From positions 1 through 17,203 of the forward strand of contig CAYVGZ010000028.1 in the NCBI GenBank assembly GCA_964450845.1: a stretch of 17,203 nucleotides of DNA. Reading direction: 5' to 3'. Of this stretch, positions 4,241-10,998 are shown in pieces. The translations under genes and the position numbers were made by a program. Positions within the stretch are counted from its first letter, which is position 1; every line of letters starts with the position of its first letter. This stretch comes from an uncultured Candidatus Bathyarchaeia archaeon. GTDB taxonomy: Archaea > Thermoproteota > Bathyarchaeia > Bathyarchaeales > Bathycorpusculaceae. The notes under the pieces were generated by a model. It worked only from the letters and a program-made list of their open reading frames with translations. It was not told where the DNA came from and ran no database searches.

Positions 4241-4306
4241 ACAACATCAGAATCATCCAATCTTAATTATCTTTACTAACCAGAAAGTGAAAAATTGTAG
4301 AAACCC

Positions 4307-4355
4307 AAAGTTGAAGCTATATATAGGGGGCTATAAATTTCGCAGAGAGCAAAAG
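4307..4355 (-). repeat. Dispersed bipartite motif, copy A
   Basis: Reverse complement CTTTTGCTCTCTGCGAAATTTATAGCCCCCTATATATAGCTTCAACTTT; 41/46 aligned columns identical to copy C. Confidence 0.9.
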
Positions 4356-4440
4356 TAAACCCCTCCAAAAACTCGTAGTCAAGCAAAAAACAAAAATCAA
4401 TCCCTAAACAAACTAAGACAAAACAAAAAAGGCAGATACT

Positions 4441-5229
4441 ATGAACGATTGGCGGTTGCTAAAACTCGAAACTCGCGATGCCTACAGAAACATGGCTATA
4501 GACGAAGCCATACTAACCGCCAGAATAGGAGACCTTACCTCAAACACGATAAGGTTCTACCGCTGGAATCCATCCGCCGTTTCTATTGGAAAATTTCAAA
4601 ACATTGAAAATGAGGTTCATTTAGGCAACTGCAGAAAGCATGGTGTAGATGTTGTTAGGCGCATAACTGGTGGTGGCGCAGTTTACCATGATGCTGAAGG
4701 CGAAATCACCTACAGCGTAGTCGCCAGCAAAAAAGATTTGAAAGCCGAAAACATAAACGCTGTTTACGCTAAATTTTATGGTGGAATAGCAGAAGCGCTC
4801 AAGATTTTAGGATTAAAGGCAGATTTTAACGAAGGCAACGCAAAAACATGCCCAAACCTAACTGTAAACGGCAAAAAAATCTCAGGAAGCGCTCAATCTC
4901 ACAAAAAAGGCATAGTCTTGCAACACGGAACACTACTCATAGAAGTAAACCTGCAGAAGATGTTCACAATACTACGAGTACCATGGGCAACTTCTTGCAT
5001 GCAAGTCGTCAACATCGCAAAAAATAAAATCACCTCAATACAAAAAGAAACCGCAAGAAACATCCCAATAAGCGAAGCAGAACAAGCATTAATCCAAGGC
5101 TTCCAAAGAACATTAAACATTAAGCTATTAGAAGGCAAACTGACAACCTATGAACGTGAACTTGCGGAAAAGCTTTACAAACAAAGATACACAACAGACG
5201 ATTGGAATTTCCACGGGAAAAACCAATAG
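4441..5229 (+). CDS. Lipoate-protein ligase A family catalytic domain (no C-terminal domain)
   Basis: NMAIDEA, RRITGGGAVYHD, NGKKISGSAQ (catalytic Lys), LQHGTLL. Confidence 0.92.
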   Translation: MNDWRLLKLETRDAYRNMAIDEAILTARIGDLTSNTIRFYRWNPSAVSIGKFQNIENEVHLGNCRKHGVDVVRRITGGGAVYHDAEGEITYSVVASKKDLKAENINAVYAKFYGGIAEALKILGLKADFNEGNAKTCPNLTVNGKKISGSAQSHKKGIVLQHGTLLIEVNLQKMFTILRVPWATSCMQVVNIAKNKITSIQKETARNIPISEAEQALIQGFQRTLNIKLLEGKLTTYERELAEKLYKQRYTTDDWNFHGKNQ

Positions 5230-5238
5230 GTGAACATC

Positions 5239-5616
5239 ATGGTAAGAGTTGCACTCTTGGATTTAGAAGAACCAAAAAATCGAAACCGCTGGATAATCGG
5301 AACACCAGAAGACATCCCGAAAACCTCACCATTCTACTCCGAACAAATCCAAATCGCACACGTCAAAAACCCGCGAAAAGGTTTATTGGAAAAGGAAGAA
5401 GAGCACTCGCACACACCGCCGATAGAAGAATATTACCTAGTCTTAGAAGGCACATTAACAGTCAAAGTAGAAAACAAAGAAATCACCATAAAACCAAACC
5501 AAATACTAACCATACCACCAGAAAAACGCCACAAAATCACAAACTACACGCTACCGCTTAGATGTTTCACCATACGCGCCCCAATCTCAACACAAAAAAC
5601 AAAAATAACAGAATAA
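5239..5616 (+). CDS. Cupin-domain protein
   Basis: HSH-x4-EEYYLVLEG and IPPEKRHKITN motifs with intact His/His/Glu/His ligands; SD AGGTGA overlapping the upstream stop favours ATG 5239. Confidence 0.85.
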   Translation: MVRVALLDLEEPKNRNRWIIGTPEDIPKTSPFYSEQIQIAHVKNPRKGLLEKEEEHSHTPPIEEYYLVLEGTLTVKVENKEITIKPNQILTIPPEKRHKITNYTLPLRCFTIRAPISTQKTKITE

Positions 5617-5625
5617 AAGGGCACT

Positions 5626-7053
5626 TTATACCTTTCGCCATCTGACACCTTCAGGTGTATCTTCAACGATTATGCCCATCTGCTTAAGCTCTTCCCTAAT
5701 TTTGTCCGCTGCCTTCCAATCTTTGGCTTTTCTTGCTTCTTCTCTTTTTTGAATAAGTTCTTCAGCCTCTTTAGACAGTTTCTCTTCCTTCTCAACCTCG
5801 CCAATCACGCCAAGAACCTTGTCAAACCTCATCATCAACTCATAAACTTCTTGAGCCTCTTCCTTACTAAGCATATTGTCGTCCACAAGTTTGTTCACAT
5901 CTCTTACAAAGTCAAACAGCGCAGCCAACGCCACACTTATGTTAAGGTCATCATCCATAGCTCCTTCAAAATCCTTTCGCACGCGATTAATTAGATTCCT
6001 TATCTCTTCTCCGCAACCTTTTCCATTAGCTTTCACCAGTTTGTACACAAAGTTAGTTAGTCGATCCACTGCACTCTTCGCAGCTTCTAACCCTTTGAAA
6101 GTGAAGTTTAATTGTTGCCGATAATGAGTTGCCATAAGTAAGTACCGAATAGCCTTCGGATCATAACCTTTTGCTGTTAAATCCTTCAATGTAAAACAGT
6201 TGCCAAGACTCTTATGCATGGCTCTTCCTTCAACAAGTAGATGCTCATTATGAAGCCAGTAATCTGCGAATTTCTTACCCGTCGCTGCCTCGCTTTGTGC
6301 AATTTCATTTTCATGATGAGGAAACATATTGTCCACTCCGCCACTATGGATGTCTATGGTTTCACCTAAATACTTCATAGCCATCGCTGAACACTCAATA
6401 TGCCAACCAGGATAGCCCTTTTCACACCACGGCGATTTCCAATTCATAATGTGTCTAGGATCATTTATCCACAGCGCAAAATCAAACTGATTCTTCTTAT
6501 CCGAATTATACTCTACCTTTCCACCTGCCCCAAGTTTTAACTTCTCAATCGTGTTACCAGAGAATTTCCCATAGTCTTCAAATTTTGCAACATCAAAATA
6601 GACAGACCCATTCACAACATAAGCATAGCCTTTCTCTACCAATTTTTTCACTAGCTCAATCATTTCATTAATATGATCTGTAGCCCTAGGCCTAACCATT
6701 GGTTCTTCAAAATTCATTACCTTAGCATCTTCCAAAAACGCCTTAATATAAAAATCAGCCACAGCCCAAGGATCCTTCTTTTCCCTCATCACCGCAGCTT
6801 CCATTTTATCCTCTCCTATATCGACATCCTCAAACATGTGCCCAACATCAGTAAAATTCATAACCTGCTTAACCGTGAAGCCCTTGTATTCCAGATATCT
6901 CCTTAAAACATCTGCAAACGTAAATGCACGCAAATTTCCTATAGTTGCATAATCATAAACAGTTAAGCCACAGTTATACATCGTTACAATACCCTTCTTC
7001 AACGGTTTGAATATCTCTTTCTTCTTGGAAAACGTATTATACAACTTGAGCAT
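5626..7053 (-). CDS. cysS: Cysteine--tRNA ligase
   Basis: [38 protein letters not shown]-terminal ADKIREEL; HIGH and KMSKS appear as TIGN and AMHKS. Confidence 0.95.
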
Positions 7054-7247
7054 CTAACCACCCCACTTCGATGTCCCTTCCATTACCATTGAACCGTGTT
7101 AACCACGTAAAGTATCTATTTATCTAAGTTATACTTTTCTTCTAAATCAAGTGCCAAAAACCAAAATTTTGCCTAAAATTCCCACATTGAACAACATAAA
7201 ACAAAACAATAAGACCAACAAAAGAGTCTTGCGCTGAAACAAATAAA

Positions 7248-7403
7248 CTAATCATATTTTTTTAATTTTATCATTTCTCTAAAATTTTTCAGATCTTGAG
7301 CTACTTGCTTTAGAAAATGAAGTTCCTCCATTGTCCTTTCGAATTTTGCAAATTCCTCTCGAATCTTCTTCACGAAACGCTCATTTTCATCCATTCCTCG
7401 CAT
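7248..7403 (-). CDS. Small helical hypothetical protein (51 aa); may extend to GTG 7453 across a 1-nt frameshift
   Basis: Manual translation MRGMDENERFVKKIREEFAKFERTMEELHFLKQVAQDLKNFREMIKLKKYD; below the ORF-track cutoff; amphipathic pattern. Confidence 0.45.
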   Translation of the reverse strand: MRGMDENERFVKKIREEFAKFERTMEELHFLKQVAQDLKNFREMIKLKKYD

Positions 7404-7453
7404 CCTCACGTATGACTCAAATGGAGGGCTTTCATCGTTTTTTGGCTAACCAC

Positions 7454-7550
7454 GCAACCACTTCCGTCATCGAGGAGAAAGGAGAAGGCTTCGAAAACGG
7501 AAAAACCGATTCTTGGTTGCTTGAAGCTTAGCCTTCAACCTTAGCCCTCC
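7454..7550 (-). ncRNA. Candidate structured leader RNA (strand inferred)
   Basis: Nested stems GCAACCA/TGGTTGC, TTCCGT/ACGGAA and TCGA/TCGA, plus adjacent TTGAAG/CTTCAA; TTTTTATA box near 7585-7592. Confidence 0.45.
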
Positions 7551-7633
7551 ACACTGCATCGTAAGACTTAAGACATCATCCGCCTATAAAAACGTTGCTG
7601 AATAAGGCGAATGCACAGACATTAAGGTGAAGT

Positions 7634-8188
7634 TTAGCCTATTGCTAAGATGCCTTCTAAAATGTTTTTTTCGGGAATGCCGAGTTGTTTTGAGAGCCAT
7701 GTTTTTAAGAGTGGGGTTTGTTTTGGGAGTTCGCCGCTGTAGGTTATGATTTGGTTGTCTTTTAGTGCGTCTACTTGGAAGGTTTTTTCGGTTTCTCTGT
7801 ATAGGAAGGATAGTGTTTGGGCTTGGTTGGCTAGTGTTTGAAAGTCTTCCCATTGTTTGCAGCGTAAAATGACGGGGGGTCCTTTCACTTCTTTAGCTTG
7901 TGATGTTTCAGGTCTTTGTTCTTGTGTTAATTGTGTTAGCACTGGGGGAGCTTCGTGTGAAGCTGACAAATATGTGATTAGGTTTGCTATTTCATTCTGT
8001 AATGTTGTTAGTCTCTCTTCAACTTTCTCTATTTTTCCGCTTAATACACCAGTATCGCCTAGTCTTTCGGTTATGCCACCTAACTCACTTATTAATTTGT
8101 CCAAGTCCTTTTCATGCTCTTTTAAAACATTCACTATAAAGTCTAGAGCTTCTAAGGCATCGTTTTTCGATGGAGGTTTCTTGGACAT
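7634..8188 (-). CDS. Hypothetical protein: N-terminal coiled coil, Pro/Gln linker, alpha/beta C-terminal domain
   Basis: 184-aa ORF, SD GAGG upstream, heptad-like N-terminal half, TTTATAAA box near 8228-8235. Confidence 0.8.
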   Translation of the reverse strand: MSKKPPSKNDALEALDFIVNVLKEHEKDLDKLISELGGITERLGDTGVLSGKIEKVEERLTTLQNEIANLITYLSASHEAPPVLTQLTQEQRPETSQAKEVKGPPVILRCKQWEDFQTLANQAQTLSFLYRETEKTFQVDALKDNQIITYSGELPKQTPLLKTWLSKQLGIPEKNILEGILAIG

Positions 8189-8526
8189 TGCTTTTTTCCT
8201 CTTTCTTCAACCTATTAATGTCCGTTCTTTATAAATAAACGTAGCGAATCCTCAAAACATATCCAGACGAAGACGTATCCATATTAATTGAGAATCATGT
8301 GTGGTATTTTTGAATTAAGCACATGTTTCATCTTTCGCTTTTCGGCGCTCCACGGAAAATCAAACTCTCCTTATAGGCTGTAGATTTGTCGCAGTGCGTA
8401 ATTTTTGTTTTGTCAGACAATAGATGTTTGGTGCAGTTTTGTTGTCGGAGAGGTTAAGATTTGATGAGAGGGTTAAAATATCGGTTTTAAAATGAGTTAG
8501 ATACCCATTAAAAAGTGGGCTTTGCC

Positions 8527-9948
8527 ATGCAAGGAACATTGGGTTTCTCTGAAAAAGAAGAAATTGTTAGGTTCATCTCAGAAAAAGGCGTCAAAATCCT
8601 TAATTTGTGTCACATTCCAGAAGATGGAAGGTTAAAAACCCTAAGCTTTTCAGCAATGGATAGGAACAGAGTTTATGAGATTTTGGAGTTTGGTGAAAGA
8701 GTGGATGGCTCAAACCTATTCCCATTCATCGAGCCAGATAAAAGCGACATTTACATAATGCCCAAAATTGATAGAGCCTTCACTAACCCTTTTTCAACAA
8801 TTCCTACACTCAACATTTTATGTGATTATTTGGATGAGCATGGAAAACCGCTTGATGTTGCACCGAAAACTGTTTTGGTGAGGGCAGAAGAAAAATTACG
8901 CTCTTCAACCGGAGTTGTTCTAAAAGCTTTAGCTGAACTCGAGTTTTACGTGATTTCTAAACAAGAAAATGAGACACTTTTTCTTGGAGCACCAGACAAG
9001 AATTATCATGAATCTGCTCCTTTCACAAAATTTGAGAATTTAAGGAATGAAGTTTTGGCTATGCTGGCTGACGTTGGCGTTGCTACCAAGTATGGACACA
9101 GCGAGGTTGGCCGAGTTTTTAGTAAAGGCGGTATATTCATGGAACAGCAGGAAATAGAGTTTTTGCCACAGAATTTAGCGGAAATGGCTGAAACAATCGC
9201 AATTGCAAAGTGGGTCATCCGAAACATTTGCGTGAAACATGTTGTGTCCGTGTCCTTTTCCCCTAAAATATCTCTTGACCATGCGGGAACTGGGATGCAC
9301 ATTCACTTGTGCGCATTGAAAAATGAAGAAAATATAGTTGCAAATCCAAATGGAACCTTAAGTGCCGAAGCCCTGAAAATAATTGGTGGAATATTGAAGT
9401 TTGCACCAAGTCTCACAGCCTTTGGAAACACAACACCCGTATCCTATCTACGTTTTATCTCACGAAAAGAGTCTCCAATGCACATTTGTTGGAGTGCTAG
9501 AAACCGTTTAGCTCTGATACGGATACCATTATGGTGGAGTTTCGTAAAGAAGGGCGAAGAAGAGGACAGCATTAGGGAAACTTTTGAGTACAGGGCTCCA
9601 GACCCGTTGGCGAATGCTTACTTGCTTTTTGCAGGAATAGCTTTAGCTGTAAATTATGGTTTAGAGAACTCGGAAGAGGCTTTGAAAATGGCTGAAGACT
9701 TGCACGTTGAAGGAACTGGCGGTGGAAGGAAAAGGCTTAGAATTTTGCCGCGGTCTTGCAGCGAATCGGCGAAAAACCTTAGGAAGCATAGAGGATTTTA
9801 TGAGGCGAACGACGTTTTTCCAAAAAAATTAATCGATAATACTATAGATAAATTGAGAGCGTATAGGGATAAGGATTTGTGGAAGAATTTGGCTGATAAG
9901 CCAGAAAAAGTCGAAAGCGTGCTAAAGCAGTATTTGCATTATGGCTAG
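8527..9948 (+). CDS. glnA: Glutamine synthetase family protein (GSI-like, divergent)
   Basis: DGSN, AELEFY, HSEVG, EQQEIEF, GTGMHIH, NRLALIRIP, EYRAPDP..NAYL; ATG 8527 preferred to GTG 8515. Confidence 0.9.
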   Translation: MQGTLGFSEKEEIVRFISEKGVKILNLCHIPEDGRLKTLSFSAMDRNRVYEILEFGERVDGSNLFPFIEPDKSDIYIMPKIDRAFTNPFSTIPTLNILCDYLDEHGKPLDVAPKTVLVRAEEKLRSSTGVVLKALAELEFYVISKQENETLFLGAPDKNYHESAPFTKFENLRNEVLAMLADVGVATKYGHSEVGRVFSKGGIFMEQQEIEFLPQNLAEMAETIAIAKWVIRNICVKHVVSVSFSPKISLDHAGTGMHIHLCALKNEENIVANPNGTLSAEALKIIGGILKFAPSLTAFGNTTPVSYLRFISRKESPMHICWSARNRLALIRIPLWWSFVKKGEEEDSIRETFEYRAPDPLANAYLLFAGIALAVNYGLENSEEALKMAEDLHVEGTGGGRKRLRILPRSCSESAKNLRKHRGFYEANDVFPKKLIDNTIDKLRAYRDKDLWKNLADKPEKVESVLKQYLHYG

Positions 9949-9957
9949 TTAAATGCT

Positions 9958-10002
9958 CTTTTGCTCTCTGCTTGACTAGACCCCCCTTATATATAGGTTC
10001 AA
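9958..10002 (+). repeat. Dispersed bipartite motif, copy B
   Basis: CTTTTGCTCTCTGCTTGACTAGACCCCCCTTATATATAGGTTCAA; first 14 nt identical to copy A and same 16-nt spacing. Confidence 0.85.
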
Positions 10003-10159
10003 TTGCTGTTTTGACTGGAAGAAGAAAGTTCTTTTTGATTGGTCAAAATTGTGTTCTGGTTTTGCAAGAGGTTCTCAGAAACTTTAAGTAAAGGCAAAGT
10101 TTAGAATAGCCTTAACATCCAAAAACAGTTGGAAATATTATTGAGGCGTGGCTTTGCAT

Positions 10160-10237
10160 GGGCGGGTAGATCAGTTTGGTATGATCGCCACGTTGGCATC
10201 GTGGAGGCCGCGGGTTCAAATCCCGCCCCGTCCACCA
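10160..10237 (+). tRNA. tRNA-Ala(GGC), CCA encoded, no intron
   Basis: Acceptor GGGCGGG/CCCGTCC with G3:U70, D stem GATC/GATC, anticodon stem CCACG/CGTGG with GGC at 10195-10197, T arm GCGGG-TTCAAAT-CCCGC. Confidence 0.97.
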
Positions 10238-10406
10238 GACACAGCGTTGGCATCCTAGTTTGTTTCATTCCGCTTGTATGTTGTGTTTCCTGAATTTTGT
10301 TCGCTATTCTTTTGATGTTCTGTTTTTTGATATATGTCTGGGGTCGAAGGAAGTGCTTTATTGAGATTTACGATATAGAATTGTAGTGGCACAGGGTGTT
10401 GGGAAT

Positions 10407-10643
10407 ATGAAGAAAGGGAAAAAGGTAGATTTGCGCGACGTTCAACTCGTTGAGAGCATAAAGCTTGCGTGGAAGGCTAGAAGGCAGGTTCAACAGGAAA
10501 TCTTGCAGAAGAAGCTGGTGCAATGTTTCTTGAAGCCACGCAAAGGACGCAAGTGTATTCAGCGATACCCTGAAGCCATGCAACCGATGATTAAGGATTT
10601 CATGCGAAAAGCCGAGGAGCAAACGAGACTTTACCGCCTATAG
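10407..10643 (+). CDS. Small basic hypothetical protein
   Basis: ORF with GGGTG SD-like element before ATG 10407; Lys/Arg-rich; no family recognised. Confidence 0.5.
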   Translation: MKKGKKVDLRDVQLVESIKLAWKARRQVQQEILQKKLVQCFLKPRKGRKCIQRYPEAMQPMIKDFMRKAEEQTRLYRL

Positions 10644-10690
10644 CATTACGCTTCTCTCATCATTCCTATATGTCTGCACGCTTTCTCTTA

Positions 10691-10736
10691 TGCTCTCTGC
10701 AAAAATTTATAGCCCTCTATATATAGATTGAACTTT
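10691..10736 (+). repeat. Dispersed bipartite motif, copy C
   Basis: TGCTCTCTGCAAAAATTTATAGCCCTCTATATATAGATTGAACTTT. Confidence 0.9.
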
Positions 10737-10782
10737 TAGTATACTCCGTTATGGAGGCTTGCAAGTTCAAGAACTTAGGCTT

Positions 10783-10998
10783 TTATGGTTTGGGTTTTTT
10801 CGCTGTTTTAGGGTTTGTCGTGGTTAGAATTACTAATCCATCTTCACTTTGCTCATAGTTTTCGACTTGTTTAAAAAGCCATTCCGTTAACTTTTGACAT
10901 TCATTTGGGTTGCAATACAGATGGCTGTCTTTTTTCCATTCCCAAAACAAGCATTTAAAACATGGAATCTCTGCTAAAACGTCAACATTAGTTTTCAT
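10783..10998 (-). CDS. Small 4-Cys metal-binding protein, possibly a TFEbeta/RPC34 C-terminal Fe-S-domain homologue
   Basis: IPCFKC-x12-CNPNECQKLTEWL. Confidence 0.6.
   Translation of the reverse strand: MKTNVDVLAEIPCFKCLFWEWKKDSHLYCNPNECQKLTEWLFKQVENYEQSEDGLVILTTTNPKTAKKPKP

Follow-up and report, generated by a model that had tools for sequence, protein, structure and literature searches.

A repeated intergenic cassette with a TATA core borders one-sided domains of strand composition in Bathyarchaeia

Background

A contig of 17,203 nucleotides (CAYVGZ010000028.1 in assembly GCA_964450845.1, our contig C28; hereafter the window) from the genome of a soil archaeon of the Bathyarchaeia (1.64 Mb, 41% G+C, 120 contigs) carries three copies of an intergenic cassette of about 60 bp, built around a TATA octamer. 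Several described systems resemble it in part. With the archaeal core promoter, composed of a TFB recognition element (BRE) and a TATA box, it shares the central 8-bp octamer, flanks whose lengths fit a promoter with its initially transcribed sequence, and the direct placement of some copies upstream of genes that have no other TATA. It departs from that model in conserving about 62 bp instead of some 15, in a BRE that is not purine-rich, in forming a discrete class, and in that half of its copies face gene 3' ends. The Correia elements of Neisseria and some MITEs (miniature inverted-repeat transposable elements) are likewise short, multi-copy and intergenic, spread by copy-paste and can carry a promoter to their neighbours. 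These possess terminal inverted repeats, target duplications and known mobilising transposases, while the cassette displays neither terminal inverted repeats nor target duplication in the alignments examined. Chi, KOPS (FtsK orienting polar sequences), AIMS (architecture imparting sequences) and the Ter sites of the Ter/Tus system are asymmetric words whose orientation is tied to strand composition or to a polar DNA process. Across whole replichores such words keep to the direction of replication. The cassette does not, and the skew beside it, a local one, is 10-20 times as strong as the global skew. In the somatic hypermutation of immunoglobulin genes, as in transcription-associated asymmetry, the effect sets in close to a promoter and weakens with distance in one direction, over about 1.5-3 kb; classically it leaves a G+T-rich non-template strand. 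By contrast, the skew beside the cassette is an evolutionary footprint in a prokaryote, with no deaminase implicated and with the opposite sign. Finally, the halovirus HF2 has intergenic repeats, 58 and 29 bp long, whose cores are AT-rich and promoter-like; nine of these repeats were cloned upstream of a reporter gene (PMC8707807). Like the cassette, which also occurs in viral contigs and upstream of a terminase, they recur between the genes of an archaeal virus. As that account presents them, the HF2 repeats belong to one viral genome and stand upstream of its genes; the cassette occupies host chromosomes of many genera, is blind to gene direction and is linked to skew.

The orientation of the cassette predicts a one-sided domain of strand skew, and this quantitative link between a motif and skew is new here; we found in the literature a description of neither the motif nor such archaeal skew domains. 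We propose, with our own opinion evenly divided, that the cassette is a lineage-specific, very strong, one-way promoter of about 60 bp, copied to 50-60 intergenic sites per genome and shared with viruses. We infer its transcriptional activity, the direction of that activity and the role of transcription in producing the skew from sequence. Four genomes recur below: G000 (the present one), G002 (same genus), G008 (another genus) and G010 (a closed chromosome, also from another genus). The forward orientation of the motif reads TGCTCTCTGC, 16-17 nt, (C/T)TATATATAG, then (A/G/C)TT(G/C)AA(C/T). The reverse orientation is its reverse complement, TATATATAA-GGGGGG-...-GCAGAGAGC, the direction favoured by a first-pass annotation of the window.

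A discrete family of cassettes

That annotation had reported three copies of a bipartite motif, A, B and C. They stand where it placed them, and both the identity of A and C (41 of 46 columns) and the spacing of 16-17 nt were borne out, the three spacers measuring 16, 16 and 17 nt. In the window, GCTCTCTGC occurs exactly three times, always at these copies, and TATATATAG with at most one mismatch nine times against 2.3 expected, a count that none of 200 shuffles reached. The exact bipartite pattern has seven copies in the G000 genome and none in a reversed-sequence control. A 31-column position weight matrix (PWM) of the core finds 58 copies in G000 above 14 bits, 44 of them above 30 bits, and again none in the reversed control; G010 contains 47. 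Further copies, in the genome and in relatives, were what the annotation had staked its motif on. Only three matches score between 8 and 14 bits, and the bimodal distribution therefore indicates a discrete family, not the upper tail of ordinary promoters.

The consensus is ttGCTCTCTGCGGWGACTAGA-CCCCCC-TTATATATAG-RTTGAAC-TTTGGTT, and a gapped alignment of 56 copies retains about 62 conserved positions, ttT..cT.TTGCTCTCTGcGg...(ACTAGA or TTATAG)-CCCCCC-TTATATATAG-RTTGAAC-TTtgGyT. Two sub-types are distinguished by correlated changes, ACTAGA-C6-TTATATATAG as against T(T/A)TATAG-C4T-CTATAAATAG. The TATA octamer (TTATATATA, TTATAAATA or TTATTTATA) is near-invariant across the 58 and 47 copies; CCCCCC adjoins it on one side and GTTSAAYC on the other, neither being a purine-rich BRE. 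A run of four to six T marks the entry edge, on the GCTCTCTGC side. Apart from CTAG and GTTSAAC the cassette has no palindromic piece, and as a whole it is strongly asymmetric, without the stem-loop of repetitive extragenic palindromes or bacterial interspersed mosaic elements. Ordinary promoters of these genomes consist of an A-rich BRE followed by TTTAWATA, 35-55 nt before start codons; examples are the conventional 16S rRNA promoter of G010 (GAAAAGAAATGTTTATAT) and those of a thermosome gene (AAAGTAAAAGTTTATATT) and of the JAB gene in the window (GTAAAGATAATTAAG). At gathering thresholds, Rfam recognised only tRNAs in the window and nine motif-bearing contigs. Cassettes may also come in tandem: two paralogous pairs lie in G000 at C2:299-395 (-) and C72:1347-1444 (-), with cores 66-67 nt apart, and the second cassette of both has a divergent upstream half (GCTCTCAGAACGCCTACCC).

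Copies turn over. Copy C is found at the same site in G000, G002 and G008, while copy B is present in G000 and G008 and the corresponding site in G002 and G010 is cleanly empty; this single occupied-versus-empty comparison, aligned base by base, displayed no target-site duplication. In G002, copy number is about half that of G000, in the same genus. A motif of about 50 bits cannot recur by point mutation, and its presence or absence at orthologous sites therefore implies spread by a copy-paste route.

Among relatives, a 20-nt degenerate pattern has 13-47 copies per genome in four genera of the family (0 in controls) and none in 23 other relatives; of 60 genera of the family that were sampled, about 13 have the 14-nt core CCCCYTATAWATAS in multiple copies (9-36). 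Three viral contigs of IMG/VR carry two or three cassettes each. A block of viral or proviral genes lies between inverted cassettes at G010:C1:369341-374124 (L056:9341-14124), and likewise at L114:2378-5695 in IMG/VR. These blocks encode a 528-aa Terminase_6N protein; their transcribed strands are 75-81% A+C, and both strands are open for hundreds of codons. No cassette lies on contig C1 of G000 (about 200 kb), which is phage-like and has 15 tRNA genes clustered at 168-186 kb; it is probably from a bacteriophage that was placed in the archaeal bin. An extra TFB paralogue in motif-bearing genomes was considered and rejected, nearly all of 41 genomes having two TFB genes, with or without the cassette.

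A polar domain of strand skew

The first-pass annotation had remarked that the motif-bearing strand is locally G/T-skewed, which is correct and proved to be the main feature of the cassette. On the strand reading GCTCTCTGC...TTATATATAG, G+T is raised over the 2-3 kb that adjoin the GCTCTCTGC side. The full skew analysis covered two genomes, G000 and G010. In G000, forward-strand G+T is 0.57-0.58 between about -1 kb and the cassette and has fallen to 0.50 at about -2.6 kb; the opposite edge is abrupt, with 0.51 at +200 to +250 nt past the cassette. Between -1000 and -50, G+T exceeds 0.5 in 50 of 52 copies (mean 0.567), as against 28 of 52 on the other side, random windows of the same genome giving 0.502 (standard deviation 0.046). 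The pattern is replicated in G010 at a higher amplitude: G+T is 0.60-0.63, returns to 0.50 at about -3.4 kb, and is raised at 45 of 47 copies versus 22 of 47 on the other side.

Synonymous positions bear most of this effect. Third-position G+T of the coding strand is 0.609 in domain genes on the forward strand (n=27), 0.336 in domain genes of the opposite strand (n=23) and 0.46 in the other genes (n=1008); codon positions 1 and 2 are barely shifted, and the third-position skew is indifferent to gene strand. The shifts are complementary and of the transition type, A and C falling on the forward strand while G and T rise. Orthologues with and without a neighbouring cassette differ accordingly, in contrasts that are illustrative and not statistical, kin not being independent. 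For glnA, third-position G+T is 0.73 (G008) and 0.54 (G000) with the cassette, 0.50 (G002) and 0.41 (G010) without it; for lplA it is 0.29, 0.34 and 0.35 with the cassette versus 0.42 and 0.50 without. Two thermosome genes have a coding-strand G+T of 0.36 and 0.38, and their paralogue with a cassette after it reaches 0.55. Coding strands lean towards A+C in general, as the genome-wide value of 0.46 indicates, and to an extreme degree in some highly expressed genes. In the main ribosomal-protein operon of G010 (C1:1052000-1061000), coding-strand G+T rises from 0.36-0.43 in the first 1.5-2 kb to 0.54-0.58 distally, which suggests a promoter-proximal gradient even without a cassette.

The orientation of these domains does not follow the replichores. 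The first-pass annotation had proposed, among other things, a site for replication or segregation; tied to replichores, this cannot be upheld, as orientation is unrelated to the global direction of replication. With an origin near cdc6 at 1.086 Mb and a terminus near 0.656 Mb, G010 has 14 plus and 21 minus copies in one replichore and seven and five in the other, with many switches, and a global leading-strand excess of only about 1%. The GC skew of viral contig L114 also swings from -0.52 to +0.55 between inverted cassettes; host replichores therefore cannot be the cause there. Opposed neighbours within 12 kb of each other tend to be arranged minus then plus, their reverse directions converging (6:0 in G010, 7:4 in G000). 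Copies A and B of the window make up one such pair, and the 5.6-kb block to which the annotation had drawn attention between them contains just ordinary housekeeping genes.

Both genomes, window included, are kilobase-scale mosaics of A/C-rich and G/T-rich strand domains, the standard deviation of G+T in 1-kb windows of G010 being 0.063 versus 0.016 expected by chance. A cassette sits at 25 of the 100 sharpest boundaries of the divergent type in G010; no other shared word was found at the remaining boundaries of that genome, nor a second conserved element at the far edge of the domains.

Gene context

Our gene calls are crude hexamer-scored open reading frames (ORFs), with a Pfam check where stated. 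By these calls all but two of the G000 copies are intergenic, and in neither orientation does the motif match the direction of the neighbouring genes. Sixteen copies lie between tandem genes that the forward motif opposes, 14 between convergent genes, nine between divergent genes and nine between tandem genes of its own direction; convergent gaps represent only 14% of intergenic gaps genome-wide, and 55% of cassette flanks are gene 3' ends against 41% expected. The convergent neighbours are real, with Pfam domains up to their C-termini (archaeosine TGT, PheT, TruD, H+-PPase, FtsY), as are genes that end at the GCTCTCTGC side (Sua5, OTCase, HAD hydrolase, metallophosphoesterase). A Pfam search of 20 neighbours rejected gene-calling error as the source of convergent neighbours; the same check revealed one missed gene, the PHP-domain gene on C23. 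A class of tRNA or rRNA promoters was likewise rejected, only three of the 41 tRNA genes called by ARAGORN having a copy, of whichever orientation, in the 330 nt upstream. A fourth tRNA with a cassette, found by Rfam and missed by ARAGORN, contains an intron (C5:10500-10611 (-), L019) and lies 85 nt past the copy in the forward direction. In G010, a copy stands 120 nt after the 3' end of the 16S rRNA gene (C1:1372047-1373693, L031), its GCTCTCTGC side toward the rRNA; there is no 23S rRNA gene within the next 650 nt.

A proposed strong one-way promoter

Read as a promoter, the cassette would fire in the reverse direction: GTTSAAC upstream, then TATATATAA, then GGGGGG, then GCAGAGAGC around the start site, followed by an A/C-rich RNA. 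A gene pointing the same way would receive a strong distal promoter, its only one or an additional one, with a long, unstructured, A/C-rich leader. Proposed sense targets are lplA, PHP, PycB, the L3 ribosomal operon and the viral terminase. Where the neighbour is opposed, the product would be an antisense RNA, as for glnA, the basic ORF of the window, cysS, tRNAs, one thermosome gene and the 16S rRNA. Transcription would fade over 2-3 kb from the cassette, leaving a strand-asymmetric footprint of substitutions that enriches synonymous sites of the non-template strand in A+C, no matter which way the resident genes run.

The genes that follow the GCAGAGAGC box support this direction, which had been the choice of the first-pass annotation and remains the best supported one. 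The cassette lies 75-95 nt upstream of lplA in G000, G002 and G008, although the gene on its other side differs in G008. On that side of copy A in G000, the JAB gene has a promoter of its own. In G010 and G032, lplA has no cassette and a conventional TATA instead. Directly beyond the box are also the PHP-domain gene and PycB in G000 and G010, the L3 ribosomal operon in G000 (which has its own TATA too) and the large terminase subunit in the provirus-like block of G010 and in viral contig L114. The likeness to the deaD promoter that the annotation had noted is genuine: the region upstream of deaD reads TTTTATATAAGGG toward the gene, and the presumed promoter region there also reads TATATAAGGG in that direction. 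In the forward direction the median distance to the first run of five T is 64 nt, as against 498 nt in the reverse one; forward transcripts would be short because of this early oligo-T run. No selection against T-runs beyond composition was seen: both strands have more of them than shuffled sequence would give. The conserved N-terminus of PycB, (I/L)TDTT(L/F)RDAHQSL, is encoded right beside the cassette (G000 C27:13007-13075; G010:C1:602720-602768). The start codon in G010 is a TTG, 16 nt past the TATA; in G000 no in-frame ATG, GTG or TTG precedes the conserved segment, where an ACG or ATC start, or an assembly error, may be envisaged.

Several observations weigh against this view. Read in reverse, several copies would fire into the 3' ends of the 16S rRNA, two tRNAs, a thermosome gene and glnA, most of them highly expressed; the annotation had already pointed out that copies B and C face genes in this way, and the genes concerned are real, copy C lying between two small genes that are convergent and conserved. 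A gene in the same direction within 260 nt exists for only 20 of 58 copies in the reverse orientation, compared with 17 of 58 in the forward one, and on neither side for 28, while most flanking genes retain a conventional TATA of their own. The PycB ORF of G010, with its HMGL domain from residue 6, leaves 16 nt where the usual distance from TATA to start is about 23-27 nt, and GTTCAAYC, just upstream of the TATA, is unlike a typical purine-rich BRE. The sign of the skew is wrong for classical deamination of the non-template strand, since G+T is gained on the presumed template strand; moreover, the skew already sets in upstream of the presumed promoter, by 200-400 nt, 28 sites of the conventional pattern AAA-N1-3-TTTATAT (putative promoters) have no comparable skew, and the correlation of PWM score with skew is weak (rho about 0.25, p about 0.07-0.1).

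On balance a promoter in the reverse direction is the most economical account of the gene associations, the A/C-rich leaders, the viral use, the decay with distance and the indifference to gene direction. We hold it with about equal belief and doubt, because a barrier or a nick, discussed below, would give the right sign and a sharp edge but neither the gene associations nor the independence from replication. Were it true, it would offer a first handle on transcription in the Bathyarchaeia, which are abundant, almost entirely uncultured and without promoter mapping. It would predict some 50 sense and antisense transcripts per genome, provide a ready strong promoter for future genetics and mean that hosts and their viruses use a common promoter type.

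A broader and more tentative formulation, which we consider possible without leaning toward it, leaves the agent aside. The cassette would be an undescribed polar element, a 60-bp site of hosts and viruses that imposes on its neighbours a one-way, strand-asymmetric mutational regime over kilobases, and so writes much of the A/C versus G/T mosaic. One candidate agent is one-way transcription of exceptional density whose bias falls, unusually, on the template strand; another is nicking, resection or stalling anchored at the site. The link between cassette and skew has in any case a wider bearing. It shows that the coding-strand composition and codon usage of housekeeping genes can be overridden by a short DNA element, accounts for at least a quarter of the sharpest boundaries of the mosaic, and furnishes, from sequence alone, a read-out of the place and direction of a polar process in organisms not yet grown. 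Both strands are open inside the domains, and ORF-based gene calling and inferences from codon usage are therefore unreliable there.

Less likely readings: barriers, an opposite promoter, nicks and selfish repeats

The sign and the sharp edge of the skew would be explained if the cassette were a polar barrier or end-point, which we regard as unlikely. Bound by TBP/TFB or by a dedicated protein, it would stop RNA polymerase, the replisome or repair synthesis coming from the GCTCTCTGC side; behind the stall, as much as 2-3 kb of the arriving strand would lie exposed in single-stranded form, and deamination (C to T, A to G) would turn it G+T-rich. This is the sign that classical single-strand deamination predicts for the GCTCTCTGC-reading strand, and it matches the weak genome-wide leading-strand skew. 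The skew also peaks beside the cassette and stops abruptly 200-400 nt past it, a T4-6 run stands at the entry edge, gene 3' ends are enriched at the flanks, and copies often sit just past the 3' ends of strongly expressed genes (16S rRNA, tRNAs, thermosome, glnA). Yet more than 90% of copies are skewed with orientations unrelated to global fork direction, and about half of the domain genes are on the other strand, so that arriving transcription would need to be pervasively antisense. A barrier leaves unexplained why lplA, PHP, PycB and the terminase start directly beyond the box, and a viral contig has the same pattern.

Turned around, the cassette might be a promoter firing in the forward direction, with GCTCTCTGC as an activator site at about -55, the C-run as an unusual BRE resembling the eukaryotic BREu, the TATA, GRTTGAAC and a start about 12 nt after GAAC. 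It would yield short G/U-rich RNAs or drive downstream genes and tRNAs. The stretch from the TATA to the predicted start is AT-rich and easily melted, conservation extends up to that start (gGyTTCTAg) and then ends, and TTATATATA fits the polarity of TTTAWATA slightly better; 17 copies have, no more than 260 nt away, a gene of the same direction, and three have tRNAs 85-322 nt downstream. We doubt this reading strongly all the same. Of 51 downstream neighbours, 31 are convergent and real, some ending 10-55 nt away; the JAB gene and tRNA-Ala do without the cassette in relatives, a T5 run comes early, and the skew domain lies on the other side. The 40 nt from copy C to the convergent stop codon are conserved, but the ORF that starts there is frameshifted in G002.

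Improbable, too, is a site-specific nick or one-ended break near the GTTGAAC side, from which 5' to 3' resection of the other strand would repeatedly expose the GCTCTCTGC-reading strand and create a hot spot of recombination or repair. It would suit a one-sided domain whose skew weakens with distance and whose edge, 200-400 nt from the cassette, is sharp, the complementary, transition-type shifts at third positions, and copies that turn over and are common to viruses; the near-palindrome GTTSAAC could be a protein site. Against it, the analysis identified neither a candidate nuclease nor an HUH enzyme and, with TFB copy number as the one gene feature tested, no co-occurring gene; no second conserved word appeared at the domain edge, a perfect TATA box would go unused, and the gene associations would have no explanation.

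Least credible, and in our opinion very improbable, is a selfish non-autonomous repeat of the MITE or REP kind without host function, its skew a coincidence of the place of insertion: presence varies at orthologous sites, copy number differs about two-fold within a genus, the sub-families carry correlated changes (ACTAGA...TTATATATA versus TTATAG...CTATAAATA) and viral contigs have it, but the alignment of 56 copies reveals no terminal inverted repeats or hairpin, its two ends not being complementary, no duplication accompanies the only about 62 conserved bases, so that the MITE remnant suggested by the annotation is not supported, copies A and C have stayed in place in more than one genus, and the skew rises toward the cassette and differs between orthologues with and without it, which points to a cause instead of an insertion preference.

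The three window copies and their neighbours

The features of the window are collected in Table 1. The tRNA-Ala gene is independent of the cassette, because G002 and G010 have no cassette at that site.

Table 1. Cassettes, genes and other features of the 17,203-nucleotide window
Feature	Position	Strand	Remarks
JAB gene BRE/TATA, conventional, GTAAAGATAATTAAG	4262..4276	-	kept in G010 and G011, both without the cassette there
Copy A	4302..4357	-	core 4302-4332, box to about 4357; GCTCTCTGC box, TTTATAG, C-run, TATATATAG, CTTCAAC; PWM score 38.4
Skew domain of copy A	4333..7200	.	plus-strand G+T 0.32-0.50 over lplA (+), the next gene (+) and cysS (-)
A/C-rich 90-nt leader	4351..4440	+	from the GCAGAGAGC box of copy A to the lplA start; no other TATA-like word
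lplA (lipoate-protein ligase)	4441..5229	+	beyond copy A in the direction TATA, G-run, GCAGAGAGC; third-position G+T 0.29
glnA	8515..9948	+	3' end adjoins the GCTCTCTGC side of copy B
Copy B	9955..10011	+	begins 7 nt past the glnA stop codon; PWM score 39.0
tRNA-Ala(GGC)	10160..10237	+	165 nt past copy B
Small basic protein gene	10407..10643	+	78 aa from ATG; ends 48 nt before copy C
Copy C	10685..10741	+	between two convergent small genes; PWM score 36.3
Cys-rich (zinc-ribbon-like) gene	10783..10998	-	conserved, 72 aa; convergent on copy C, stop codon 42 nt from the core

Two small genes flank copy C. The product of the basic one, rich in Lys and Arg, has no Pfam match and is conserved beside tRNA-Ala in G002 and G008; the Cys-rich one (CxxC...C..C), kept in the same two genomes, is easily overlooked, a plus-strand ORF overlapping its 3' flank. 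Two other candidate ORFs around this copy were rejected: one starting from the ATG at 10752, 26 nt past it, which is frameshifted in G002, and, as a target of the copy, a minus-strand one at 10368-10622, which resembles an antisense artefact of the basic ORF, itself apparently real on the plus strand.

A further word of 20 nt, TTTTTGTTTTGTCAGACAAT, with the inverted repeat TGTC-N-GACA, is present exactly three times in the G000 genome, at 8395-8421 (+) of the window, C10:18767 (-) and C22:16931 (-). The window site precedes glnA by about 100 nt, and both others are found 90-110 nt past cassettes; the word could be the operator of a small regulon, perhaps of nitrogen metabolism.

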